Source: Kayfunavirus BDX03P1 | DNA: 39,754 nucleotides | Reading direction: 5' to 3' (one strand) | Sequence record: OZ035818.1 | In this document: positions 1 to 39,754 of the stretch, in pieces | Layout of the letters: every line of letters starts with the position of its first letter | How positions within the stretch are numbered: position 1 is the stretch's first letter | Translations under genes and position numbers: made by a program | The notes under the pieces: generated by a model | Seen by the model: only the letters and a program-made list of their open reading frames with translations | Databases searched by the model: none | Told to the model about the DNA's origin: nothing

Positions 1-29
1 TACAAAACGATTAAAGGAGGTGGTAAAAC

Positions 30-293
30 ATGACGCAGATGGACTTAGAGAAGTTCCTCTTAATGCTAGATACTGAACGTGCTCGACTCATGCTGCAAGA
101 CCTGCGGGATGACACTAAGCGTTCACCTCAGCTTTACAACGCCATTGAGAAGCTACTGGCTCGTCACAACTTCGTGCTAAGCAAGGTGTCTGTCGACGAG
201 AAGACGCTCGCTGATATGGAGGCCCTGAACGCAGAGTACGATAAGGTGCTCTCCGCTACGGAAGATAATGACACTGGATATGGAGTACAGTAA
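30..293 (+). CDS. terminase small subunit (T7 gp18-like)
   Basis: 87-aa ORF with SPQLYNAIEKLL segment and overall resemblance to T7 gp18 as I recall it; followed by Rz-like gene and terminase large subunit in T7 order. Confidence 0.8.
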   Translation: MTQMDLEKFLLMLDTERARLMLQDLRDDTKRSPQLYNAIEKLLARHNFVLSKVSVDEKTLADMEALNAEYDKVLSATEDNDTGYGVQ

Positions 294-305
294 ATCTCTT
301 AAGTG

Positions 306-350
306 TTAGACTCAAGGTCATTACTATATGTAGTGGCCTTTATGGTTAAC
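306..350 (+). promoter_or_regulatory. conserved hairpin element, probable RNase III processing site (T7 R18.5 position)
   Basis: ttagactcaaggtcat...gtggcctttatggtta; near-identical element recurs at 9305-9350 and 16888-16931 with conserved outer arms AAGG/CCTT and variable inner stem-loop. Confidence 0.45.
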
Positions 351-403
351 ACTAACTAGTGGAGGAGACTCTACGTGAAATCTGATAAACCGGGAGGGCA
401 ACT

Positions 404-847
404 ATGCTCGAATTTTTAAAGAGAGCGGCTCCGTGGTTACTCGCAGCAGTGATGTTTGCTGGTGGCTACCACACCGCTAACAATAAGTGGGAGGCTAAGG
501 TCAATGCAGAATACACCTCGAATCTTAAGGCATCGGAGGATACAAGACTTGCTGTCCAAGCTGAAGTCAACAAGGTGTCCAAACGGTTTCAGGACGAGAT
601 GTCCTCGCTGGAAGGCAGCACTGACAGGATTATTGCTGACCTTAAGTCTGACAATAAGCGGTTGCGCATCCGAGTCAAACCTACGAGTGGAACCACGCAA
701 AGTGACGGTCGATGCGTCATTGATGGTTACGCCGAACTTGACGAACGAGATGCTAAACGTCTTATCGCCATCGGACTGAAAGGAGATAAGTGGATTACGG
801 CCCTTCAGGACACTGTGAGAGCCTTGCAGCAAGATAAGGAGCAATAA
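404..847 (+). CDS. i-spanin, Rz-like (T7 gp18.5-like)
   Basis: 147-aa ORF, N-terminal hydrophobic segment PWLLAAVMFAGGY then charged/coiled region; position after gene 18. Confidence 0.8.
   Translation: MLEFLKRAAPWLLAAVMFAGGYHTANNKWEAKVNAEYTSNLKASEDTRLAVQAEVNKVSKRFQDEMSSLEGSTDRIIADLKSDNKRLRIRVKPTSGTTQSDGRCVIDGYAELDERDAKRLIAIGLKGDKWITALQDTVRALQQDKEQ
504..779 (+). CDS. o-spanin, Rz1-like lipoprotein (T7 gp18.7-like), embedded in +1 frame of the Rz gene
   Basis: ORF 456-779 in alternate frame; lipobox LTISGC followed by ASES, PRWKxAL motif resembling T7 gp18.7; start at internal ATG 504 chosen over 456 (uncertain). Confidence 0.6.
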   Translation: MQNTPRILRHRRIQDLLSKLKSTRCPNGFRTRCPRWKAALTGLLLTLSLTISGCASESNLRVEPRKVTVDASLMVTPNLTNEMLNVLSPSD

Positions 848-1230
848 TGCTAACAGACTTTGCGTATTCAGACGGTAAGTTGTTCAGGAAGGGACGTGAA
901 GTCGGCTCAATGGACAACCACGGGTATCTGAGGACTACGGTCAACTATCGTAAGTATCTCGTACACCGTCTAATCTACAAGCTGCACAACCCTGAGTTCG
1001 ACCTTGAATCAGACCTTGTGATTGACCACATCAACCGCAACCGGACAGACAACAGGATTGAGAACCTTCGGGCTGTGACCAAGGCTGAAAACAACAGGAA
1101 CAGGGACCTGCCAAGAGGCGTGTCTTATTGTAAACAGACCGGGAAGTGGAAGGCTATACAACCTCGCTGGCTCGGTCGATTTGAGACTGAACAGGAGGCC
1201 ATTGATGCAGTTAACGCCGCAAGAGCGTAA
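847..1230 (+). CDS. HNH homing endonuclease with AP2-like DNA-binding domain
   Basis: 127 aa; HNH core [29 protein letters not shown]; C-terminal AP2-like segment [32 protein letters not shown]; start ATG overlaps Rz stop. Confidence 0.8.
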
Positions 1231-2968
1231 TGACGCCGTGACAAAGAGGATGAAAGAGGACTTCGTGTTCTTCTTATTCGTCCTCTGGAAAGCACTTAGC
1301 CTACCAATACCAACCAGATGCCAGATAGATATGGCCCGTAAGCTATCGGCTGGGGACAACAGGCGCTTCATCTTACAGGCGTTCCGTGGTATCGGGAAGT
1401 CCTTCATTACGTGTGCCTTCGTTGTCTGGAAGCTATGGAACAACCCAGACTTGAAGTTCATGATTGTGTCGGCCTCAAAGGAACGAGCCGATGCTAACTC
1501 CATCTTCATCAAGCGAATCATCGACCTCATGCCTCAGCTTCAGGAACTCAAACCTAAGCAGGGACAGCGAGATGCGGTTATCAGCTTCGACGTTGGACCA
1601 GCCAAGCCAGACCACTCACCTTCGGTTAAGTCAGTTGGTATCACTGGTCAGTTGACTGGTAGTCGTGCTGACATCCTGATTGCCGACGACGTGGAGGTTC
1701 CGAACAACTCAGCGACTCAGGCTGCACGAGACCGTCTATCAGAGCTTGTGAAAGAGTTCGACGCTATCCTGAAGCCTGGAGGTACAATCATCTATCTGGG
1801 TACTCCTCAGAACGAGATGACCTTGTATCGTGAGCTGGAAGGCCGTGGATACACCACTACTATCTGGCCTGCTCGCTATCCACGTGATAGGAAGGACTGG
1901 CAGTCTTACGGCGACCGTCTGGCACCGATGCTTCAGGCAGAGCTGGAAGAGGACCCTGAGTCCTTCTACTGGCGTCCGACCGATGAAGTTCGCTTCGACG
2001 ATACTGACCTGAAGGAACGTGAGCTGTCCTATGGTAAAGCTGGCTTCGCTCTACAGTTCATGCTCAACCCGAACCTGAGTGATGCCGAGAAGTACCCTCT
2101 GAAGCTCCGTGACCTTATCGTAGCAGACTTGGACCCAGCGTCCAGCCCAATGGTCTACCAATGGTTGCCTAACCCTCACAACAAGCGTGAGGACGTTCCT
2201 AACGTTGGACTCATGGGCGACTCGTACCACACGTATCAGACTGTAGGTTCTGCCTTCAGTTCGTACACCCAGAAGATTCTGGTCATTGACCCTAGTGGTC
2301 GTGGTAAGGATGAAACTGGCTATGCGGTACTATACCAGCTCAACGGCTACATCTTCGCTATGGAAGTTGGCGGTATGCGTGGTGGTTATGAAGACTCTAC
2401 TCTGGAAGCTCTGGCTAAGATTGGTCGTAAGTGGAAGGTCAACGAATACGTCATTGAGGGTAACTTCGGTGATGGTATGTACCTTGAGTTATTTAAGCCT
2501 GTAGCGGCCCGTATCCATCCTGCGGCTGTAACTGAAGTGAAGAGTAAGGGTCAGAAAGAACTCCGCATCTGTGACGTTCTGGAGCCTATCATGGGGTCTC
2601 ACAGACTTATCGTCAACGCTGCTGCTATCGTCCAAGATTACCAGTCGGCCTCTGATAAGGATGGTGTTCGTAACCCTATCTACTCTCTCTTCTACCAGAT
2701 GACACGTATCTCTCGTGAACGTGGGGCCTTGGCACACGATGACCGACTTGATGCGCTGGCTATCGGTGTACAGTTCTTCGTTGAGTCTATGGCTAAGGAT
2801 GCCAACAAAGGCGAACGTGAAGTCACTGAGGAGTGGCTGGAGGAACAGATGGAGAACCCACGGAAAGGCTTCGAGTCCATCCACACTGAGTTCTGGGACA
2901 ATGGGGTCCGGGTAACCCACGATACGGACGACGAGCTGGGGCTAGGGTCATACGTTACGTTCCACTAG
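1205..2968 (+). CDS. terminase large subunit (T7 gp19-like)
   Basis: Long ORF 1181-2968; strong resemblance to T7 gp19 ([21 protein letters not shown] Walker A region, [20 protein letters not shown]); start 1205 chosen by alignment of N-terminus, alternative ATG at 1181. Confidence 0.9.
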
Positions 2969-3062
2969 CTGAATGAATAACTATGGGTGAAAGCTGCATG
3001 AATACGCAGTTAGTAACCTATAGTTACTACCAGTCTAACCTACTGTTTTACAAGGAGTTTGG

Positions 3063-3085
3063 ACTTAACTATCACTATAGGGAAG
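3063..3085 (+). promoter_or_regulatory. phage RNAP promoter (phiOR-like, downstream of terminase)
   Basis: cttaactatcactatagggaaga matches the 12-copy consensus TAAACTATCACTATAGGRA. Confidence 0.6.
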
Positions 3086-3264
3086 ACCCCCGGTTACTTA
3101 TAGTATTACTGTAGTGAATATACATATGCAGACTTTATGCAAGACCTTAGGAGGCAGACTCCGAGTTCTTACCTAAGGCTTGCACCGATGGAAGGAGGTG
3201 ATATTAATCATAATCCCTCCAATACAGATAGTCACCGACCATAGATACAGGAGGTATGTAGCAT

Positions 3265-3423
3265 ATGGCAAAGACCAAAGCTGTACTTAAAGCTCTGGCG
3301 ACCAATCGAGCTACATACAGGTTTCTTGCTGCTGTTCTACTTGCTGCTGGCGTTACTGCTGGAAGTCAGTGGGTCGGGTGGGTCGAGACTCTCGTATGTT
3401 CTCTGGTGTCTGAGTGTCATTAA
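3265..3423 (+). CDS. small hydrophobic protein at gp19.5 position
   Basis: 52-codon ORF (below the ORF-track cutoff) with AGGAGG RBS 8 nt upstream; MAKTKAVLKALATNRATYRFLAAVLLAAGVTAG...; position equivalent to T7 gene 19.5. Confidence 0.4.
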   Translation: MAKTKAVLKALATNRATYRFLAAVLLAAGVTAGSQWVGWVETLVCSLVSECH

Positions 3424-3559
3424 CGCCGTAATGGTAACAATAAACGAAAGTAAGACCTAAGGTCAGTTCATAGCTGACGCTACTCTACTGACCTTAGCTA
3501 CTGTAGTCAAGGACTTTAGGTAACACCTTAAGAGAAGCTCACTTAGGGTCATCCTACTT

Positions 3560-3625
3560 ATTGGTCTATCCTAGTGTCGCCTGACCTACGGTCCTTGACC
3601 TACAGTGGCTGTGGCCTACAGTAGT
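3560..3625. repeat. short direct-repeat array (ACCTACRGT-type) flanking the terminal repeat
   Basis: gacctacggt / gacctacagt / gcctacagt tandem imperfect copies; analogous to T7 short-repeat arrays next to the terminal redundancy. Confidence 0.5.
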
Positions 3626-3660
3626 GACGATGAGTTTTGGACCAAAAGTTTGAGACCACA

Positions 3661-3850
3661 TCTCACAGTTCAAGAACCTCAAGTCTCCCCATAGGCCATC
3701 TTTCAGTCCAGACCAAAGGCCCTACCCCAGTCTATCATAAGGTTGGACCGATGGTCAAGACGTTAGGTCAACGATAGGTCTAGGCTATGGCTTAGGGAAG
3801 GACGATAGGTAGGGACTATGGGTCTTCTCTGAGTCTCTATCTGTATCAGA
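3661..3850. repeat. probable terminal redundancy (direct terminal repeat) / physical genome end, collapsed to one copy
   Basis: Begins tctcacagt as the T7 left end does (TCTCACAGTGTACGGACC); ends near ctctatctgtatcagacc resembling the T7 TR end; flanked by short-repeat arrays; right boundary approximate. Confidence 0.45.
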
Positions 3851-3950
3851 CCATAAGTAACAACCATCAGCCTACGCCTACAGTCTCACTAACCATAAGT
3901 CACAACCATAAGACACCAACGCCTACAGTCAGAGACCAACGGTTAATAGA
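3850..3950. repeat. short direct-repeat array (CCATAAGT and CGCCTACAGTC units)
   Basis: aaccataagt x3 and cgcctacagtc x2 in about 100 bp; analogous to T7 CCTAAAG repeats on the left-end side of the TR. Confidence 0.5.
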
Positions 3951-4054
3951 CACAATGCTATAGACTTAAGGTCTAAGACATGTTAGTCAAAGACTATATC
4001 CTCTTACACCATGGGGCCGACGATGGCTCAATCAATATTATTTCAAATAACCTA

Positions 4055-4090
4055 TTGACTATAGGTCTAGACTATGGCTTAATAGCTTCC
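4055..4090 (+). promoter_or_regulatory. sigma70 early promoter (A1-like)
   Basis: TTGACT - 17 bp - CTTAAT; surrounding sequence resembles the T7 A1 region (ttgact...ccggata...gtagacagcctgataagtc). Confidence 0.45.
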
Positions 4091-4194
4091 GTCAACACGA
4101 CACGGCAACAACCGGATAGTGAAGACGCCGGGTCATCCCGGTCAAGTAGACAGCCTGATAAGTCATACGAACAACAGGCAGATGACAAAAGCAG

Positions 4195-4232
4195 TTGACA
4201 AGAAGTACAAACTTAAAGTAGTATGTACCACG
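4195..4232 (+). promoter_or_regulatory. sigma70 early promoter (A2/A3-like)
   Basis: TTGACA - 18 bp - TAGTAT followed by GTACCAC as in T7 A3. Confidence 0.5.
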
Positions 4233-4342
4233 TAGCAAGATGGCGTAGGGATAGGAGCCGAGAAACCTGCCCGAGACCAGCCAAGGATAAGGCACTAGCC
4301 GTGAGTCGAATTCGGTCACTCACCGCATAAAAGAATAACAGG

Positions 4343-4380
4343 TTGACAGCCTCCTTTAAAAGCTGTAAGCTGTACCACAT
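4343..4380 (+). promoter_or_regulatory. sigma70 early promoter (A3-like)
   Basis: TTGACA - 17 bp - TAAGCT followed by GTACCAC. Confidence 0.5.
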
Positions 4381-4549
4381 CGAAACGAAGGTGAAGCCTA
4401 ACACTGAAACAGGCTAGCACGGCGACGACAGCCAACGCGAATGCTCTTTAACAATTTGGATAAACTCTTAATGTGCGCCGATAGCGACTAACTACAGGGT
4501 CTTTGAGTCTACAGCTGAAGGCCCTGACTGATAGTCACTAACTTAAAGG

Positions 4550-4804
4550 ATGGACACTATGAAACACTTAAGCACAATCACTAATCACAATGAAGTATTC
4601 GTGAACACTAAAGGTTATGCGTGGATTCAGCTTAAAGAGATGACAGGAGCGCGTCACCGTGTGGTAGTGCGCAAGGTCTCAAGCAAGCCGTTCAGCAACT
4701 ACAGTGTAGACACTGTGCGTATAGACAACGAGACCTACCTGATAGACTCACAGATAACCGTGAGTCCTACAGCGAGCGCCTCAGCTCCTTATTTCGCTAA
4801 CTGA
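4550..4804 (+). CDS. hypothetical early protein, first gene of the early operon (no T7 counterpart recognised)
   Basis: 84-aa ORF with GGA-rich RBS (aaggatgg); directly downstream of host-type promoters and upstream of ocr; flanked by similar elements (taactacagg...ctgatagtcactaac) at 4500-4545 and 4810-4860. Confidence 0.6.
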   Translation: MDTMKHLSTITNHNEVFVNTKGYAWIQLKEMTGARHRVVVRKVSSKPFSNYSVDTVRIDNETYLIDSQITVSPTASASAPYFAN

Positions 4805-4889
4805 GAGTGATTAACTACAGGTCGTTAGACTGATAGCGGCCTGAATGATAGTCACTAACACACACGATTAACTTTGAGAGGATATAACT

Positions 4890-5237
4890 ATGGAACGTAA
4901 CGCTAACGCATACTATGAGCTGATGGCTGCAACTGTTGAAGCCTTTAACGAGCGCATTCAGTACGACGAAATAGCTGAAGGCGATGACTACCACGATGCA
5001 CTGCATGAAGTTGTAGACGGTCAGGTCCCGCACTATTACCACGAGATCTTCACGGTGATGGCTGCTGATGGTATTTACCATGAGTTCGAAGACTCTGGGC
5101 TGATGCCTGAGACCAAGGATGTGACGCGTATACTGCAAGCTCGTATCTATGAGGCGCTTTATAACGACGTATCTAATAGCCGTGATGTGGTATGGTTTGA
5201 GGCTGAAGAGAGTGACGACGAGGAGGACTGCGAGTGA
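4890..5237 (+). CDS. ocr: Ocr-like DNA-mimic anti-restriction protein (T7 gp0.3-like)
   Basis: 115 aa, highly acidic; segments [41 protein letters not shown] and acidic C-tail match T7 Ocr closely. Confidence 0.9.
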
Positions 5238-6297: not shown

Positions 6298-8979
6298 ATG
6301 AGCGTCATCTCTATTGACAAACACGACTTCTCTGATGTGTCAAACGCCATTGAGCCGTTTAACCTGCTGGCCGACCACTACGGGCAAGACCTTGCAGTCA
6401 AACAGCTTCAGCTTGAGCATGAGGCATACACTGAAGGCGAGCGACGTTTCATCAAAAACCTTGAGCGCCAGACTGAGCGAGGGGAACTGGCAGACAATCA
6501 GGTCGCCAAGCCTCTGATGCAGACTCTGGTCCCTAAGATTGCGCAAGCCGTCAGGGAGTGGCATGAAGGTCCAGACGGGAAGCTGTCAACCTCTCGTCCT
6601 AGCGTAGCGTTCACCATGTTGAGCACTGAAGAGAAGGCCGTCAAGGCCCGCTCGCTGCGCATCTCTTGCGAGTCTGCTGCGGTCATCATACTGAAGGTCA
6701 TACTCTCCAAGCTGGTCAAGCCTGAAGGGATACCGATTACACCGATGGCCTCCGCGATAGGTCGCACACTTGAGGACGAAATCCGCTTCGGTCGCATCCG
6801 TGACAAGGAGAAGGAGCACTTCAAGAAGGCGATAGCTGAGAATCTGAACAAGCGAGCTGGGGCATCCTACAAGAAAGCCTATATGCAAGCTGTCGAGACC
6901 TCCATGCTGGAGCAAGGCCAACTGGAAGATGCGTGGGGGACTTGGAGTCCTACAGAGGCTGTCCACGTTGGCATCAAGATGCTTGAGATTGTCATCCAGT
7001 CAACACAACTGGTCGAGCTTAAGCGGTACGGTGCTGGCAATGCAGCGGCTGACGTCGAGATGGTCCACCTGTCAGACTTCTGGGTCAAGAAGATGGCACA
7101 ACGAGGATTCAGCCTTGCGGGTATCGCTCCAGTCTACCAGCCTTGCGTCGTTCCACCTAAGCCGTGGACTGGTGTCGTAGGAGGTGGGTACTGGGCCAAA
7201 GGACGCAGACCACTACCACTGATTCGCTTAGGGTCTAAGTCTGCGGTGGCACGTTATGAAGACGTGTACATGCCTGAAGTCTATGACGCTGTGAATATCA
7301 TCCAGAATACACCTTGGAAAGTTAACAAAAAGGTACTGGAAGTGGTGAACATGGTCGAGAAGCTAAACAACACGCCTATTGATGACATCCCTCAGATGGA
7401 GCCACTGAAGCCTGAAGACTATGCGGGTGAGACTGAAGAGGAACTCAAGGCATGGAAGAAGGCTGCTGCTGGTATCTACCGCCGAGAGAAGGCCCGGCAG
7501 TCACGTAGATTGTCACTGAGCTTTATCGTTAACCAAGCGAACAAGTTCTCTCAGTTCAAGGCCATATGGTTTCCGTACAATATGGACTGGCGCGGTCGTG
7601 TCTACGCTGTTCCGATGTTCAACCCTCAGGGTAACGACATGCAAAAGGGTCTCCTGACTCTGGCAGTCGGTAAGCCTATTGGTGCTGATGGTTTCAAATG
7701 GCTGAAGGTCCACGGTGCAAACTGTGCGGGTATTGATAAAGTAACCTTCGAGGAGCGCATCAAGTGGGTGGAAGATAACCACGACAACATCATGGCTACC
7801 GCTAAGGCACCGATGGACAGCATTGAGTGGTGGGGAAAGTTAGACTCTCCGTTCTGCTTCCTAGCGTTCTGCTTCGAGTATGCTGGCGTAATGCATCACG
7901 GATTGTCTTACTCCTGCTCGCTGCCGATAGCATTCGATGGGTCCTGCTCTGGGATTCAGCACTTTAGCGCAATGCTTCGTGATCACATCGGTGGACATGC
8001 AGTAAACCTGACGCCTTCCGGTAAGGTCCAAGACATCTACCGCATCGTGTCGGACCGCATTGAGGAGGAGCTTAAAGTCCTGCTGGTTAATGGCACGGAC
8101 AACGAGATGGTAACTCACGAGGACAAGAAAACTGGTGAGATTACCGAACGTCTCAAGCTGGGGACACGAGAGCTGGCCCGGCAGTGGCTGACTTACGGTA
8201 TGTCACGCAAGGTCACTAAGCGTTCGGTCATGACTCTGGCCTACGGGTCGAAAGAGTATGGCTTCGCAGACCAAGTTTACGAGGACATCGTTATGCCAGC
8301 GATTGACTCAGGGTCTGGCGCTATGTTCACCGAACCAAGCCAAGCGTCCCGCTTCATGGCTAAGATGATCTGGGAAGCTGTGAGCGTGACCGTAGTTGCT
8401 GCTGTTGACGCGATGAAGTGGCTTCAAGGTGCTGCCAAGCTGCTGGCTGCTGAAGTGAAAGACAAGAAGACTGGAGAAATCCTGAAGCCTTGCCTTCCGG
8501 TACACTGGGTCACACCTGATGGTTTCCCGGTCTGGCAGGAATACCGCAAGAAGGATACCACTCGTCTGAATCTGATGTTCTTAGGGTCATTCAACCTTCA
8601 ACCTACGGTCAACAAAGGTACGAAGAAAGAGCTGGACAAGCACAAGCAGGAGTCAGGCATTAGCCCGAACTTCGTCCACTCACAAGATGGTAGCCACCTA
8701 CGCAAGACTGTAGTCCACACTCACCGTAAGTATGGCGTGATGTCGTTCGCAGTGATTCACGATAGCTTCGGGACCATCCCGGCTGACGCTGAGTATCTGT
8801 TCCGGGGTGTCCGTGAGACGATGGTCGAGACCTACCGCGACAACGATGTGCTGCTTGACTTCTACGAGCAGTTTGAATACCAACTTCATGAGAGCCAGCG
8901 CGACAAGTTGCCTGAGCTTCCGAAGAAAGGTAAACTGAATATCGAGGACATCTTGTCTTCAGACTTTGCATTCGCTTAA
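6298..8979 (+). CDS. DNA-directed RNA polymerase, single-subunit (T7 gp1-like)
   Basis: 893 aa; near-colinear with T7 RNAP (e.g. WFPYNMDWRGRVYAV, FNPQGNDM, FDGSCSGIQHFSAMLRD, HDSFGT, C-terminal FAFA). Confidence 0.97.
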   Translation: MSVISIDKHDFSDVSNAIEPFNLLADHYGQDLAVKQLQLEHEAYTEGERRFIKNLERQTERGELADNQVAKPLMQTLVPKIAQAVREWHEGPDGKLSTSRPSVAFTMLSTEEKAVKARSLRISCESAAVIILKVILSKLVKPEGIPITPMASAIGRTLEDEIRFGRIRDKEKEHFKKAIAENLNKRAGASYKKAYMQAVETSMLEQGQLEDAWGTWSPTEAVHVGIKMLEIVIQSTQLVELKRYGAGNAAADVEMVHLSDFWVKKMAQRGFSLAGIAPVYQPCVVPPKPWTGVVGGGYWAKGRRPLPLIRLGSKSAVARYEDVYMPEVYDAVNIIQNTPWKVNKKVLEVVNMVEKLNNTPIDDIPQMEPLKPEDYAGETEEELKAWKKAAAGIYRREKARQSRRLSLSFIVNQANKFSQFKAIWFPYNMDWRGRVYAVPMFNPQGNDMQKGLLTLAVGKPIGADGFKWLKVHGANCAGIDKVTFEERIKWVEDNHDNIMATAKAPMDSIEWWGKLDSPFCFLAFCFEYAGVMHHGLSYSCSLPIAFDGSCSGIQHFSAMLRDHIGGHAVNLTPSGKVQDIYRIVSDRIEEELKVLLVNGTDNEMVTHEDKKTGEITERLKLGTRELARQWLTYGMSRKVTKRSVMTLAYGSKEYGFADQVYEDIVMPAIDSGSGAMFTEPSQASRFMAKMIWEAVSVTVVAAVDAMKWLQGAAKLLAAEVKDKKTGEILKPCLPVHWVTPDGFPVWQEYRKKDTTRLNLMFLGSFNLQPTVNKGTKKELDKHKQESGISPNFVHSQDGSHLRKTVVHTHRKYGVMSFAVIHDSFGTIPADAEYLFRGVRETMVETYRDNDVLLDFYEQFEYQLHESQRDKLPELPKKGKLNIEDILSSDFAFA

Positions 8980-33010: not shown

Positions 33011-36000
33011 CATAATGGCGACTCGTGGTATTCGCAATAACAATCCGGGTAACATCCGGGTAAGTAAGGACCAATGGGAAGGAATGACTGGAGATGATGG
33101 CGCATTCGTCACCTTCGATAGTCCAGAGTCTGGCGTCCGAGCTTTAGGTAAAAACCTGCTGTCCTACGGTCGCCAAGGTTATGACTCCATCGAGAAGATT
33201 ATCAACAGATGGGCACCTCCTAACGAGAACGACACTAAGGCTTATATTGACTCAGTTGTGGCTGCAACTGGTATTCCAGCTACCCAGAGTCTAGACCTCT
33301 CGAACCCGGACACCCTGTCTTCTCTGGCTCAAGCTATCAGCTTCCATGAGACAGGCTCCCGGTATGACCCTGAAGTCTATCAGAAGGGAGTCGAACGAGC
33401 ACTCAATGGCATTAGCCCAAAGACTCCACCAGTAAGCGCTAACGTATTTGACGCACTCACGGAAGGACTCAAGGCTAAACCTAAAGTAGCTCTGGGTGAG
33501 AACCTTCCGACCGCTGCTGGTCTGAACATTGAGGGTCAAGCACCTGAAGCTCCCAACGAATCGTTCGGTGAGATGTTCTATAAGGCTACTGGAGAGACCA
33601 TGCAGGAACGAGAGGACCGCTCTACGTGGTTCGGTTTCGGTGCGGCTACAGAAGCTGAAGTGAAGAACTCTATGATCGGCGTGGCTATACGAGCTGGTCA
33701 GACTGAGGACTCACTGGATGTCATTGGCGATGTGTTCAACCCAACCCGATGGAACAACCATAAGTGGTCTCGTGAGGAGCTGGACCAGATTCGTAACGCT
33801 GGGGTTCTGCCTCAGTATTACGGAGTCATTACTGGCGGTTCTCCTCAGAATCTGACAGAGCTGATTAACTTGGCGCTTGAGAACCAGAAGTTGGACCAAG
33901 AGAAGGCCAAGGCTGGGACTGGCGCTCAACTGGCGGCTGGTGTGATTGGTGCTGGTGTGGACCCTCTGACCTACGTTCCTATTGCTGGGCAGGTAGGTAA
34001 AGGTGGGAAGCTAATCAACAAGATGTTCACTGTGGCTGCTCAGTCTGGTGCTCTGGCTGGGACATCCGAGATTGCTCGAACCTCAGTTGCTGGTGGGGAC
34101 GCTCATGTGGCTGAGGCCATTATGGGCGGTGCTCTCTTCGGTGGTGGTATGACTGCTATAGCTGATGGACTAGGCAGAGCCTTAGGTCGCAACACTAACG
34201 AGTTCGCTGGTCCAGCTACACGTCTGGAAGCTCGCGAGACTGCACGTAATGTTGACGGTCAAGACCTGTCGCGTATGCCAATCCGTGAAGGAGAGGAGAC
34301 CTTTAGTCACCAAGGCGTTAAGTTCGCTGACGTGCCGAATGAGCCGGGAAGTGTACGATTAGAAGATGGTTCAATCTTGATTGGTGAGAACCCTCTGAAC
34401 CCTAAGACCCGTCAAGTCTTTGACGAAGTGATTGAGCCGGAACGTGCCGCTGCTGGTGTGAACCTTGGTGGACTTACCGAGATTGGCCTGAAGCTGCTTC
34501 GGTCTGAGAACCCTGAGATTCGTGGAGTAGCTGCTGACTTAGTACGTTCACCGACTGGTATGCAGTCTGGGGCCTCAGGTAAAATAGGGACAACTGCATC
34601 AGACGTGTTCGAGAGACTTCGTGCTGTGGACCATCGGTTCTACAACGACATCGACGATGCGGTTACTGAGGCCCTAAAGGACCCGTACTTCCAGACAGCA
34701 TTCTGGCGAGACTCTGGCGCATTCCGTCAGGACATCTACCAGCGTGTGTCTATGGCTATCGAAGATGGTAGCGGAAACCTGAAGGCTGAACTGACTCCGG
34801 GAGAACTGAAAGTCTATGACCTGCTGAAGAACCAGTTCGACGCCAAGCGTGAGATGATGGAGAACCCAGCTATGTTTGGTCGCCCAGACGCTCAGTCTAT
34901 CTTTCCGGGTAGCCGCTTCAAGGGAACATACGTCCCTCATGTGTATAGCAAACAGATGAAGGAGCTGTACATCAAGGAGCTTGGGAGTCCAGAGGCGTTG
35001 CAGGAGGCCATCAAGAAGTCATGGCTTACCAGCTATGCGTCTCGATCTGAAGTCAAGAAACGCGTGGACGAGGCACTCTTAGAGGCTGACCCTACGTTGA
35101 CTCCAGATGGACTTGCTGCTGCGGTCGATAAGTACGCCAACGATAAGGCTTACGGTATCTCTCACACCGAGCAGTTCGAACGTTCATCCGTAATGGAAGA
35201 GAACATCAACGGTCTGGTTGGTCTGGAGAACAACAGCTTCCTTGAGGCTCGTAACCTGTTCGATAGCGATATGTCAATCGTCCTACCTAACGGTCAGACA
35301 TTCAGTGTAAACAATCTGCGTGAGTGGGACATGGACAAGATTGTCCCGGCCTACAACCGTCGAGTTAATGGAGACATTGCTATCATGGCTGGTACAGGCA
35401 GAACCACGAAGGACATGAAGGACTTGGTTGAGACCATGATGAACAAGGCCGGGGATGACGGCAAGTTGAAAGGTGAGGTATCTACCTTACGTGACACCTT
35501 GAAGATTCTCACTGGTCGTGCTCGGCGTGATGGGGCTGATGATGCAGCCTTCGCTACAGTGATGCGTACAATGACAGACCTATCGTTCTTCGCTAAGAAT
35601 GCCTACATGGGTGTTCAGAACTTGACGGAGATTGGTGGTATGCTGGCTCGTGGCAACGTTCGTGCGCTTCTGCATGGAGTCCCGATGTTCCGTGACCTAG
35701 CCTTCCGTAACAAGAAGGTAGGAGCTTCAGAGATTAAGGACCTGCACAATGTTATCTTCGGTAAGGAACTGGATGACTCAATCCGTCCGTCTAAACAGGA
35801 TGTCATTGACCGTCTGCGGTCTTACAGTGACCTCGGTCGTGGTGCAGCTACAGCTCTGGGGACTGCCAAGTATTACACTGGTGAACTTGCAGTACGCTCT
35901 CCGTTCACTAAAGTCCTCAACGGTACGACCAACTACCTGTTAGATGCTGGACGTCAAGGCTTCCTGTCTGACATCGTGGAGCATAGTCTGACTGGTAGTA

Positions 36001-36902
36001 AGCGTAAGTTCGATGACCGCTGGCTTAAGACAGCTGGTATATCTGACGAGCAGTGGAAGGGCATTAAGTCCCTAATCCGTGAGTCAGTGACTCGTGGTCC
36101 AGACGGGAAGTATACCATCAAGGATAAGAAGGCGTTCAGTCAGGACCCAAGGTCTATGGACCTGTGGCGTATGGGTGACACCATCGCTGACGAAACGTTA
36201 CTCCGGCCCCACAAGCTGTCAAACATGGACGCCAAGGCTTATGGTCCTCTCGCTAAGACTGTCCTTCAGTTTAAGAACTTCGTCATCAAGTCCATCAATG
36301 GACGTACCATGCGAACCTTCTATAACGCCACGAAGAACAACCGAGCGATGGACGCTGCTCTGTCCACTGTGATCTCTATGGGTCTTGCTGGTATCTACTA
36401 CATGGCTCAGGCGCATGTCAAGGCTTACGCTATGCAGGATGGTCGAGACCGTGACTACCTCAAGCAAGCTCTGGACCCGACGATGATTGGATATGCAGCT
36501 CTATCACGTAGTTCACACCTTGGTGGACCACTTGGGGTAGCTAACATTCTTGGTGGTATCGCTGGGTATGAGGACACTAAGATGCTCCGTTCGTCTATCC
36601 TCCCTCGTTCACCTACAGAGAAGCCTGAACGTGCCATCGCATATGGTGCGGCTACAAGTGACCCTGTGATGAATGTCGTCGGTAACTTCTTGGAGCAGGT
36701 CCCGGCTTTCGGCTATGCTGCTAACGTTGGCGCTTCGGCTTACAACTTGGCTGGCTATCTCAATGCTGATACTCGTGTCAATGAGCGTGACTACATGACC
36801 GGGATGTATAACACGTTCCGTGAACTGGTCCCGAACGACCCGATTACCCAGAAGTTACTGCTTGGAACGTTTGAGGAGCAAGGTATCCACATCAAGGACT
36901 AA
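32997..36902 (+). CDS. internal virion protein D (T7 gp16-like), N-terminal domain divergent from T7
   Basis: 1301 aa; residues from about 200 onward colinear with T7 gp16 (PTRWN, VTGGSP, LEARETARN, VRSPTGMQSGASGK, KGTYVPHVY); N-terminal ~190 aa lacks the SLT-type E-S / GLMQ motifs. Confidence 0.9.
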   Translation: MVRSNIMATRGIRNNNPGNIRVSKDQWEGMTGDDGAFVTFDSPESGVRALGKNLLSYGRQGYDSIEKIINRWAPPNENDTKAYIDSVVAATGIPATQSLDLSNPDTLSSLAQAISFHETGSRYDPEVYQKGVERALNGISPKTPPVSANVFDALTEGLKAKPKVALGENLPTAAGLNIEGQAPEAPNESFGEMFYKATGETMQEREDRSTWFGFGAATEAEVKNSMIGVAIRAGQTEDSLDVIGDVFNPTRWNNHKWSREELDQIRNAGVLPQYYGVITGGSPQNLTELINLALENQKLDQEKAKAGTGAQLAAGVIGAGVDPLTYVPIAGQVGKGGKLINKMFTVAAQSGALAGTSEIARTSVAGGDAHVAEAIMGGALFGGGMTAIADGLGRALGRNTNEFAGPATRLEARETARNVDGQDLSRMPIREGEETFSHQGVKFADVPNEPGSVRLEDGSILIGENPLNPKTRQVFDEVIEPERAAAGVNLGGLTEIGLKLLRSENPEIRGVAADLVRSPTGMQSGASGKIGTTASDVFERLRAVDHRFYNDIDDAVTEALKDPYFQTAFWRDSGAFRQDIYQRVSMAIEDGSGNLKAELTPGELKVYDLLKNQFDAKREMMENPAMFGRPDAQSIFPGSRFKGTYVPHVYSKQMKELYIKELGSPEALQEAIKKSWLTSYASRSEVKKRVDEALLEADPTLTPDGLAAAVDKYANDKAYGISHTEQFERSSVMEENINGLVGLENNSFLEARNLFDSDMSIVLPNGQTFSVNNLREWDMDKIVPAYNRRVNGDIAIMAGTGRTTKDMKDLVETMMNKAGDDGKLKGEVSTLRDTLKILTGRARRDGADDAAFATVMRTMTDLSFFAKNAYMGVQNLTEIGGMLARGNVRALLHGVPMFRDLAFRNKKVGASEIKDLHNVIFGKELDDSIRPSKQDVIDRLRSYSDLGRGAATALGTAKYYTGELAVRSPFTKVLNGTTNYLLDAGRQGFLSDIVEHSLTGSKRKFDDRWLKTAGISDEQWKGIKSLIRESVTRGPDGKYTIKDKKAFSQDPRSMDLWRMGDTIADETLLRPHKLSNMDAKAYGPLAKTVLQFKNFVIKSINGRTMRTFYNATKNNRAMDAALSTVISMGLAGIYYMAQAHVKAYAMQDGRDRDYLKQALDPTMIGYAALSRSSHLGGPLGVANILGGIAGYEDTKMLRSSILPRSPTEKPERAIAYGAATSDPVMNVVGNFLEQVPAFGYAANVGASAYNLAGYLNADTRVNERDYMTGMYNTFRELVPNDPITQKLLLGTFEEQGIHIKD

Positions 36903-36920
36903 ACTATCACTATAGGAAAC
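36898..36920 (+). promoter_or_regulatory. phage RNAP promoter (phi17-like)
   Basis: ctaaactatcactataggaaacg; overlaps gp16 stop. Confidence 0.65.
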
Positions 36921-36967
36921 GGGACGCTACCATAGGTCCCATTTAATTCAAAACTTAAGGAGGCCAA

Positions 36968-39550
36968 ATGGCTAAGATTACGATTAATAACTACCCGTCA
37001 GGCCCCACTCAGTTCAAGATAGCGTTTGACTACTTGTCCCGAACCTTTGTGGTCGTAACCCTAGTCCGTACCAGCAATCAGGCCCTAAACAAGGTCCTGA
37101 CTCCAAATAAAGACTATCGGTTCCTGAACTCAACGACCATAGAGATATTGGTGTCCCAGACTGGATTTGACGTTGTTCAGATCCGCAGACAGACAGCAAC
37201 AGACTTAGTGGTTGCTTTTCGTGACGGCTCGGTCCTGACAGCAAGCGACCTGACTAACGCAGAGCTTCAGGCAGTCCACATCGCTGAAGAAGGTCGCGAC
37301 CAGACAGCAGACCTTGCTAAGGAATATGCTGACTCAGCCCTGACGTCTGCTAACCGAGCCAAGGCTTCTGAGAATGAGGCCGCACGTCTCGCTGAGAAGA
37401 TTCGAAACATGGGCGTAGGCGGTTACGTAACGGTTCGCCCTCCAATCGGTTCCTTCACCTTGGGCTACACAATCCAAGAGTGGAACGAGGTTCTCTGGAA
37501 CGATGATGACCTAAGTTATTACCGATGGGACGGGGCTGTTCCTAAGGTCGTTGCTCCTGGTTCGACTCCAGCAACCGCTGGTGGGGTCGGCGCTGGTAAG
37601 TGGGTTAATGTTGCCGACGCTAGTCTCCGTAGTGACCTCGGTCAGACCTCTGGTGCTGGGCGAATTGGAACAGCCACTGGTCAGACCCTAGCTGAGTCAC
37701 TTCACGCAGAAGACTCTCCGATGTCCTTCGGTACGGCTACAGCTAAGGCTAAGGCCAGATTAGCGACTCATGGTTGTCGTGTCCTTCTGGTTGGGGACTC
37801 ACTGAGTAGCTTCTACAACATAGACACCGCAAACGTAACGTCCCTCTTTGAGTCGTACCTCCGACGTAAGGTACACGAGACCAACCCGTCTGCCGAGTTT
37901 ATCAACAGGGCCATAGGCGGGATGCGATATTATGACTTAGGCCGTGATGAGCCGCCTGCACGCCTTGGCGATGGATACCCGTGGTTCACTGATAGATCAC
38001 GTCGCTGGATGTCTTATATCGAAGAGGCCAAGCCTGATGTAATCTTCATCGCGTTCGGCATGAACGATGGTCCGGGATGGGACGTAGGTAACTTCCAGCA
38101 GCCAGTGTTCTACAAGATGGTCGAAGAACTTCGGTCTATCTCTAGTGAACCTGAGCTGGTGTTCTGCACGAACATCTTACCGTCTACCGTTAACCCGGCT
38201 ACTGCCACAGAGGAACAACAGTCTGGACGCGACGCTATTGCTGGATGGACCCGTTCGTATGCTAAGTTTGCTGGGTATAGCTTCATAGACATCCATCGCC
38301 ACTTTAAGTCTCTGCGTGATGGGGTAGACCCCTGCGTATTTAGCTTCCGTCGCTCCACAATATCGACTCTGGTAGACCTCCCGTATACCTATACGTCGAA
38401 AGTGCCGTGCTACTCGGTACGACTCACTGTAGTGGACCCTGCTGTCCTTGTTACTGGCATCCAGATGTACCTATCGTCTTTAACGAACAACTTCGTCACC
38501 CTTTCATATGAAAGCGCATTAGGGAAGTGGCGTTTACAGCACTACACTGGGACATCTCTGGGGATGACGCTTAACGTGTTAGGAGATGGACCAGCGCCAG
38601 TGGTCGACCAAGAGATTCATATGTCCCTTAATGGTGATGTACTGACGGTGTTCATTGGGAAGAACACAAAGCCTATATTTTCTGGAAACATTATCCGTTT
38701 CGGCGGTAAGTTCACTCCGAGGATTGGAGGCACAGGCCAGATTAGGGTGGACATCATGGCTGGATTAGAGGTTCCGGTAGCTGCGTCTCTCACGGATTCC
38801 GACATCTACAGTACGAGTATAGACGGCGGTAACGGTCTTAATCACCCTACTGCTAAGGCCAGCTCCAGAATCTATCCACCGCCATTGGACTACTGGTTCA
38901 ACTCAGCAGGTCCAGAGCCCCTCAAGTTCGACATCGAGGCCGACTTCAGGTCTGGCACACTTGCGGTGTCCAACAAGTTTAGTCCAAAATCTGGAGGCGT
39001 ATACAACCTGTTCACCAAGCTGACCTTCATCAACGGTGCAGTAGAATATGTGCGGGACTCTGAGAACGTGGTTATAGGGGCGCGCTTCGGGTCAAACAAC
39101 CGGGCGTATATCGACATGGCAGACTACATGGAACCGGGGCTGTCCTTCAAGCGTCTGACTGTAGAGATTGAGATGTATGCACCGTCTGGAGCTGCGCACG
39201 TCTTATCCCTCGGTGAGGCCACTACAGGGGACCGCTCTATGTATCAGGTGACGGAAGGTCTACAGCTTCGAGCCACTACTTCCAGCTCAGGTCAAGCAAC
39301 GGACTTAACGTCCTCAGCGTCTTTCCATATGACTGCTGGTCGAGACTACACGTTAATCCATGATGTGGACTTAAAGGCCAAGGTTGCAGCTCTCCGTACT
39401 GTGGATGGCTTCAAGATTGGGAACACCAACACCCACGCGATTACCAGCCTATTATCTGAGCTCCTGTCTAAGATTAAGTTCGGGTATTCATCTCCTAGTA
39501 CATTTGGGGGAGATGTGGTGATTAAGCGTGTGCGGATTGCGCTTAGGTAA
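36968..39550 (+). CDS. tail fibre / tailspike with T7 gp17-like N-terminal anchor and SGNH-hydrolase (esterase) domain
   Basis: 860 aa; N-terminal ~150 aa resembles T7 gp17 (FDYLSRTFVVVTL, DYRF, RDGSVLTASDL, HIAEEGRD); central GDSL block LLVGDSLSS, conserved Gly AIGGMRYY, GxND block IFIAFGMNDG, DIHRH near end of domain. Confidence 0.9.
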   Translation: MAKITINNYPSGPTQFKIAFDYLSRTFVVVTLVRTSNQALNKVLTPNKDYRFLNSTTIEILVSQTGFDVVQIRRQTATDLVVAFRDGSVLTASDLTNAELQAVHIAEEGRDQTADLAKEYADSALTSANRAKASENEAARLAEKIRNMGVGGYVTVRPPIGSFTLGYTIQEWNEVLWNDDDLSYYRWDGAVPKVVAPGSTPATAGGVGAGKWVNVADASLRSDLGQTSGAGRIGTATGQTLAESLHAEDSPMSFGTATAKAKARLATHGCRVLLVGDSLSSFYNIDTANVTSLFESYLRRKVHETNPSAEFINRAIGGMRYYDLGRDEPPARLGDGYPWFTDRSRRWMSYIEEAKPDVIFIAFGMNDGPGWDVGNFQQPVFYKMVEELRSISSEPELVFCTNILPSTVNPATATEEQQSGRDAIAGWTRSYAKFAGYSFIDIHRHFKSLRDGVDPCVFSFRRSTISTLVDLPYTYTSKVPCYSVRLTVVDPAVLVTGIQMYLSSLTNNFVTLSYESALGKWRLQHYTGTSLGMTLNVLGDGPAPVVDQEIHMSLNGDVLTVFIGKNTKPIFSGNIIRFGGKFTPRIGGTGQIRVDIMAGLEVPVAASLTDSDIYSTSIDGGNGLNHPTAKASSRIYPPPLDYWFNSAGPEPLKFDIEADFRSGTLAVSNKFSPKSGGVYNLFTKLTFINGAVEYVRDSENVVIGARFGSNNRAYIDMADYMEPGLSFKRLTVEIEMYAPSGAAHVLSLGEATTGDRSMYQVTEGLQLRATTSSSGQATDLTSSASFHMTAGRDYTLIHDVDLKAKVAALRTVDGFKIGNTNTHAITSLLSELLSKIKFGYSSPSTFGGDVVIKRVRIALR

Positions 39551-39592
39551 TAACCTTGGGTCACGGACGACCCGCTTTAAACTGGAGGTTTT

Positions 39593-39754
39593 ATGATTGA
39601 GTTAGACTTCAAGAATGAAGTCCTTAAAGCCTCTCCTATCGTCGGGACCGCTGCGGCTGATGGTGCCAGTCGGTTCTTCTTCGGACTCACACTGAACGAA
39701 TGGTTCTACGTTGCAGCTATCGCGTACACCGTTGTCCAGATTGGTGTGCTAGTC
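39593..39754 (+). CDS. holin (T7 gp17.5-like), 3'-truncated by window end
   Basis: MIELDFKNEVLKASPIVGT...FFFGLTLNEWFYVAAIAYTVVQIG closely matches T7 gp17.5; ORF runs off the window. Confidence 0.8.
   Translation, partial: MIELDFKNEVLKASPIVGTAAADGASRFFFGLTLNEWFYVAAIAYTVVQIGVLV

Follow-up and report, generated by a model that had tools for sequence, protein, structure and literature searches.

A short direct terminal repeat, the motifs at its boundaries and the arrays of short repeats around it are textbook features of the T7 family, and all of them have already been described for K1F-like phages. The repeat is annotated at both ends of the EcoDS1, Vec13, SH3 and SH5 records, and in the Peacock record it is annotated as a PhageTerm prediction. 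For the Citrobacter phages SH3, SH4 and SH5, the ends were obtained by run-off sequencing on virion DNA until the signal dropped (Hamdi et al. 2016, PMC4925675); the K1F repeat is cited there as 179 bp, a second-hand figure. In the records that hold both copies, the exact lengths are 178 bp (EcoDS1 and K1F), 179 bp (Vec13), 184 bp (SH3) and 191 bp (SH5). The left junction, …TTTGAGACCACA/TCTCACAGTTCAAGAACCTC (a slash marks the boundary here and below), is identical across EcoDS1, K1F, Vec13, SH3 and SH5, and the right junction reads …GAGTCYCT/ATCTGTA in EcoDS1, Vec13 and SH5, the K1F record stopping 1 nt earlier and the SH3 record 5 nt later. The repeats of T7 (160 bp) and T3 (231 bp) are bounded by the same motifs, A/TCTCAYAGT and GTGTCCCT/ATCTGTT. 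Finding the repeat just once, in mid-record, has also been described as a common artefact among T7-like records (PMC9503643).

We analysed the whole 39,754-nucleotide record OZ035818.1 of Kayfunavirus BDX03P1, referred to below as the window. The original prediction had taken it for a complete genome in circular permutation, with a physical left end at about 3661 and the terminal repeat in one copy, and homology supports that view. We hold it very probable that the window is a complete Kayfunavirus genome deposited as a rotated circle, and that the virion would contain linear DNA of 39,932 bp whose direct terminal repeat, 178 bp long, corresponds to 3661-3838. Compared with the repeats of its Kayfunavirus relatives (K1F, EcoDS1, Vec13, Peacock and the Citrobacter phages SH3, SH4 and SH5), that of the window has the same two junctions, the same flanking arrays and the same location between gene 19.5 and host promoter A1; the lengths in these relatives lie between 178 and 191 bp, and the identity to the window's repeat between 92 and 97%. 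The difference is one of layout, since the records of the relatives are linear and carry the repeat at either end (in Peacock at the left end only), whereas the window has one copy 3.6 kb inside.

Results

Genome identity and opening point of the record

The best database matches of the window were all Kayfunavirus. BLAST against the complete K1F genome gave about 93-95% identity over long aligned blocks in rotated collinearity, and nucleotide alignment gave a similar 93-95% or so for PDP351P3 across most of the genome, a few shorter blocks against either phage reaching only 80-81%. Collinear with K1F and its relatives and highly identical to them at the nucleotide level, the window falls within the genus Kayfunavirus, and it contains the full T7 gene order without a gap. 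In the same BLAST comparison, K1F 35945-36155 corresponded to window 39544-39754, K1F 36156-39704, which is the right end of K1F, to window 1-3837, and K1F from base 1 onward to the window from 3661 onward. As K1F is contiguous at 36155/36156, base 39754 and base 1 of the window should be adjacent.

The holin gene 17.5 bears on the same point. The original prediction had followed the holin open reading frame in frame across the end of the window to base 1, up to a TGA overlapping the gene 18 ATG, and this was confirmed: the joined product is a 64-residue protein (MIELDF…KGGGKT) whose match to the Pfam model Phage_holin_2_2 (PF10746; E = 2e-22) covers 53 of 61 model positions. The holin gene is thereby shown to be intact rather than truncated, the circle having been opened within it, 29 nt upstream of gene 18. 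The contiguity of the two ends in K1F, together with a holin gene that is intact once joined, points to a rotated complete genome in which the repeat has collapsed. Moreover, the first and last 60 bases of PDP351P3 (OZ035732.1; 1-60 and 38991-39050) are identical to those of the window. Since the opening point is thus the same base for base in another record, it would reflect a re-orientation convention and no physical end. Several further OZ0357/OZ0358 records have the repeat 3.3-4.1 kb from the record start. A side effect of the re-orientation pipeline common to the window and PDP351P3 records is that it splits the holin gene.

A separate observation concerns the tail-spike gene 17, whose 3′ part, over about 2.2 kb (window 37329-39544), shows no similarity at the nucleotide level to either K1F or PDP351P3. 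A receptor-binding/depolymerase domain appears to have been swapped here, and host capsule specificity therefore probably differs from that of K1F.

Table 1. Features of the window around the record ends and the terminal repeat
Feature	Position	Strand	Remarks
Gene 17.5 (T7-family holin), 5′ part	39593..39754	+	Cut by the arbitrary record start
Gene 17.5 (holin), 3′ part	1..33	+	Stop codon TGA (31-33) overlapping the start ATG of gene 18 (30-32)
Gene 18, terminase small subunit	30..293	+	Pfam DNA_Packaging_2, E = 3e-12; phrog_1351, E = 1e-34
Gene 19, T7-type terminase large subunit	1205..2968	+	Pfam Terminase-T7_RNaseH-like, E = 6e-38; phrog_38, E = 1e-131
Phage RNA polymerase promoter phiOR	3063..3085	+	20-mer 3065-3084 matches the annotated EcoDS1 phiOR exactly
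Gene 19.5 homologue, 52 codons	3265..3423	+	Last gene of the physical genome; phrog_2193, E = 1.5e-24
Perfect inverted repeat, 11-bp arms CTAAGGTCAGT / ACTGACCTTAG	3457..3497		34 nt beyond the stop codon of gene 19.5
Left short-repeat array, three TGRCCTACRGT units	3582..3622	+	Corresponds to the short repeats on the left side of the terminal repeat in T7
Near-invariant block CGATGAGTTTTGGACCAAAAGTTTGAGACCACA	3628..3660	+	Directly left of the predicted left-end cut site; last physical right-end bases before the repeat
Direct terminal repeat (predicted), one collapsed copy, 178 bp	3661..3838	+	Alignment with K1F, EcoDS1, Vec13, SH3, SH5, Peacock, T7 and T3
TATCTGTA, "concatemeric junction" motif in the EcoDS1 and PE3-1 annotations	3838..3845	+	Putative counterpart of the T7 class II pause signal
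Right short-repeat array, ACCATAAG / CCTACAGT units	3850..3943	+	Unit number highly variable among relatives
Host RNA polymerase early promoter A1	4055..4083	+	TTGACT, 17-nt spacer, CTTAAT
Host RNA polymerase early promoter A2	4195..4224	+	TTGACA, 18-nt spacer, TAGTAT

Boundaries of the terminal repeat

A search of 50,697 phage records with window 3655-3860 found this stretch in 225 of them. Base 1 of the K1F, EcoDS1, PR_Kaz2018, HC13, Peacock, Vec13, LS2 and ECG4 records aligns to window 3661 (base 7 of the query), and the SH3 and SH5 records likewise begin at the base aligned to this position. These record starts bear out the left end placed at 3661 by the original prediction, which had relied on the motif that opens the T7 genome. 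Indeed, TCTCACAGT stands at 3661-3669, T7 begins with TCTCACAGT, and the site has the expected setting for a TCTCAYAGT left end, between gene 19.5 and the early host promoters. Taken alone, TCTCACAGT is not significant, since the expected number of copies is 0.62, the window has two, and that number is reached in 11 of 100 shuffles; the significance of the left end comes from the near-invariant block of about 100 bp around it, common to the relatives, and not from the 9-mer itself.

At the right end, the window reads CTCTGAGTCTCT/ATCTGTA where T7 reads CTCTCTGTGTCCCT/ATCTGTT, so that the pattern of such an end, …YCYCT followed by ATCTGT, is found as GAGTCTCT/ATCTGTA at 3838/3839. A resemblance to the end of the T7 repeat had been proposed near 3850; the resemblance stands, and the homologous boundary lies 12 nt further left, at 3838/3839. 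Of the seven records compared, EcoDS1, Vec13, SH5, T7 and T3 end at this same right junction, the two others being K1F and SH3. We thus predict that 3661 is the physical left end and 3838 the physical right end. The right boundary is uncertain between 3837 and 3843, since it varies from −1 nt (K1F) to +5 nt (SH3) among the deposited relatives, and 3838 could be a few bases off. BLAST found the repeat sequence only once in the window, and with one copy present the virion DNA is predicted to measure 39,754 + 178 = 39,932 bp.

Two further observations concern the interior of the repeat. The 24-mer ACGATAGGTCTAGGCTATGGCTTA (3771-3794) shares 92% identity with the segment of promoter A1 that comprises the spacer and the −10 element (4058-4081), and looks like a degenerate promoter copy. 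On the minus strand, 3729-3758 holds a leftward sigma-70-like site (TTGACC, 18-nt spacer, TG, TAGACT), possibly the counterpart of the leftward promoter A0, which T3 also has within its repeat.

Short-repeat arrays and conservation around the junction

Arrays of short direct repeats had been noted as flanking the junction, and we found them on both sides of the repeat. On the left, the units are TGACCTACGGT at 3582, TGACCTACAGT at 3596 and TGGCCTACAGT at 3612; on the right, ACCATAAG is found at 3850, 3892 and 3905, CCATCAG at 3864, and CGCCTACAGTC at 3874 and 3919. The motif CCTACRGT occurs five times in 3560-3950 (391 bp), against 0.09 expected from its plus-strand rate elsewhere (Poisson P = 4e-8).

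Conservation was read from an alignment of ten Kayfunavirus junction sequences. Around the left cut site, about 100 bp are nearly invariant: 32 of the 35 columns (91%) at 3626-3660 are invariant, as are almost all of the first 70 or so bases of the repeat, and the block to the left of that site has partial similarity to T7 and T3 (ACCAyAAAAATCTGA). The interior of the repeat tolerates substitutions, plus one replacement of 10-12 bp, and GAGTCYCTATCTGTA at the right cut site is again invariant. In the right array, 72% of the alignment columns are gapped, PE3-1 having many extra units. Invariant boundaries next to indel-rich arrays are the pattern to be expected if recognition or cleavage takes place at the boundaries and slippage or recombination drives the evolution of the arrays.

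The small palindrome TTTTGGACCAAAA stops 13 nt before the left cut site and has one T fewer in PDP351P3; considered as a structural element, it was rejected, as it folds like its shuffles (z = −0.67). Outside the junction, CCTACRGT is found nine times on the plus strand, where order-3/4 Markov models predict about 2-3 occurrences. These copies fall within coding DNA (8602, 9214, 11220, 13425, 14260, 22863, 23660, 27378 and 33163) and share no single reading frame, five of them being translated as Pro-Thr-Val. Their conservation in K1F and PDP351P3 is only partial, and both phages have the same whole-genome plus-strand excess.

Genes, promoters and hairpin beside the junction

The T7-type terminase pair, genes 18 and 19, lies just upstream of the junction, as recognised by Pfam and PHROG. 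For gene 19, we read the start from the sequence as the ATG at 1205, which follows AGGAGG (the mechanical open reading frame starts at 1181), giving a length of 1764 nt that equals that of EcoDS1 gp19. The full 23-mer of phiOR is readable, and rightward transcription from this promoter would run through gene 19.5 and over the junction. Open reading frames homologous to the gene 19.5 homologue are annotated as gp19.5 in EcoDS1 and PE3-1. The inverted repeat that follows it lies about 184 bp left of the terminal repeat; as DNA it folds at −11.2 kcal/mol (z = −3.1), and among the ten relatives its arms are invariant and its loop varies. In T7 and T3 the corresponding place, about 190 bp to the left of the terminal repeat, is taken by an inverted repeat with 19-nt arms and an unrelated sequence.

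To the right of the terminal repeat, A1 is 97% identical to the host promoter annotated at 469-505 in EcoDS1 and aligns with T7 A1, and A2 scores 10 of 12 in the pattern search and matches the EcoDS1 promoter annotated at 609-647. EcoDS1 has a third annotated host promoter, for which the window shows no equivalent. TTGACA…TAAGCT at 4343-4371 was rejected as a promoter, being a pattern match only. Within 3839-4054, no phiOL-type promoter was found at up to 3 mismatches from the 20-mer core of EcoDS1 phiOR, and the EcoDS1 annotation likewise lists none there. An Rfam scan of 2900-4900 gave no match at E ≤ 1.

Pfam and PHROG lend no support to a coding function for the stretch that follows gene 19.5: the open reading frame at 3637-3777 has no family match. 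The one at 3980-4198 (72 codons) matches a single family, phrog_30192, of unknown function (E = 6e-45), and probably represents an open reading frame that is repeatedly mis-called in related records. It spans host promoter A1, and its EcoDS1 homologue carries a 1-nt insertion.

A pause-like motif right of the repeat

The class II pause signal of T7 RNA polymerase is (H)ATCTGTT (bioRxiv 10.1101/2021.01.11.426313; 10.64898/2026.02.12.705533), and any base change in the ATCTGTT core is reported to abolish termination by this polymerase (10.1101/2021.01.11.426313). A class II core is ATCTGTT preceded by A, C or T; the window reads T-ATCTGTA, with six of the seven core bases and A as the seventh. 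This ATCTGTA (3839-3845), at the position homologous to that of the T7 signal, is invariant in all 10 Kayfunavirus sequences. In the window as a whole, HATCTGTW occurs 12 times where 7.8 would be expected, which is no enrichment, and its relevance here comes solely from position and conservation. Since ATCTGTA differs from the ATCTGTT that T7 polymerase requires, polymerase pausing in Kayfunavirus is to be taken as putative. It is possible, though in our estimate rather doubtful, that the K1F-type RNA polymerase, encoded at 6298-8979, recognises TATCTGTA as a variant of the class II pause signal and that the hairpin at 3457-3497 is the functional counterpart of the T7 and T3 inverted repeat. 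Alternatively, the conservation of ATCTGTA may reflect the terminase cut site alone.

Discussion

The concatemer biology of T7 and T3 is established, having been reported by Dunn and Studier in 1983 and by Chung, Nardone and Hinkle in 1990, and it is from these two phages that we infer a mechanism for the window. The virion DNA would start at 3661 with TCTCACAGT…, run rightwards to the end of the window, continue through 1-3660 and finish with a second copy of 3661-3838. Replication would produce head-to-tail concatemers with one repeat copy per junction. Terminase, made of the gene 18 and gene 19 products, would then act with the prohead to cut at …ACCACA/TCTCACAGT and at …GAGTCTCT/ATCTGTA, the repeat being duplicated. 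Phage RNA polymerase coming from phiOR probably pauses at the ATCTGTA right of the repeat, which would help maturation to start, and the short-repeat arrays that flank the terminal repeat presumably evolve fast. As for the record, the assembler would have merged the two repeat copies and the circle would then have been opened inside the holin gene. As a consequence of this merging and rotated opening, 3424-4150 is laid out like a concatemer junction in vivo, with right-end DNA, one copy of the repeat and left-end DNA in succession.

Other readings of the window were weighed against this one. One could imagine that the join between its two ends is an assembly artefact, or the genome incomplete, and that the circle is not real. 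The two ends do not overlap, and circularity cannot be read from the window alone; yet K1F is contiguous at the corresponding point, PDP351P3 has the same 60 bases at each end, the join restores a holin that fills most of its Pfam model, and no gene of the T7 order is missing, so that we regard a false join as extremely improbable. Only slightly more credible, and still very unlikely, is the idea that the stretch is an intergenic regulatory region and nothing else, in a phage that packages truly permuted DNA by a headful mechanism and lacks defined ends at either 3661 or 3838. It is true that the window is permuted and holds the stretch once, as headful packaging would have it. Against this stand a terminase with a T7-type nuclease domain and the ends of the nearly identical relatives SH3 and SH5, which are experimental, and of Peacock, predicted by PhageTerm from reads, all at the homologous position; besides, a permutation point that recurs base for base in another deposited genome argues for a bioinformatic convention.

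A repeat that is real but whose boundaries deviate from 3661-3838 by more than a base or two, with for example a right end at 3843 as in SH3 or at about 3850, is an unlikely reading that nevertheless deserves more weight. It draws on the scatter of the K1F and SH3 right ends, 1 nt before and 5 nt after the position found in EcoDS1, Vec13, SH5, T7 and T3. These last five of seven independent records, however, end exactly before ATCTGT, the left boundary is identical in all seven, and 3850 is without any support. We retain a linear genome with the predicted repeat at 3661-3838 as the preferred reading.

These results reveal no new biology and amount to the correct reading of a common artefact of assembly and deposition. 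Their value is practical: the genome should be written from 3661 and completed on the right with 3661-3838 repeated, as a sequence of 39,932 bp. In addition, the open reading frames called over 3424-4200 in many related records are probably spurious.

On its sequence, the feature belongs to the T7-type class of short direct terminal repeats (Studiervirinae) and is nearly identical to the known K1F-like ones; all sequence-level features of the class are present except the exact class II core. T3 resembles the window closely at the very start of the genome, its first 25 bases, TCTCATAGTTCAAGAACCCAAAGT, being nearly identical to TCTCACAGTTCAAGAACCTCAAGT, and ATCTGT follows the repeat in both; the T3 repeat is 53 bp longer, and a phiOL is annotated in T3. 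The concatemer junction of T7 has the same genome start, TCTCACAGT, and the same repeat end, YCYCT/ATCTGT, as the window. The layout is also shared, from phiOR, gene 19.5, the inverted repeat, short repeats and the terminal repeat to the pause motif, short repeats and promoters A1 to A3. Within this common frame, the repeat measures 160 bp in T7 and 178 bp in the window, with interiors that cannot be aligned, the short-repeat unit is CCTAAAG in T7 and CCTACAG/CCATAAG in the window, and the class II pause site CJ reads ATCTGTT where the window has ATCTGTA. Finally, both T7 and T3 possess phiOL, whereas no phiOL-like phage promoter was found in the window between the repeat and A1 at up to 3 mismatches from the EcoDS1 phiOR core.
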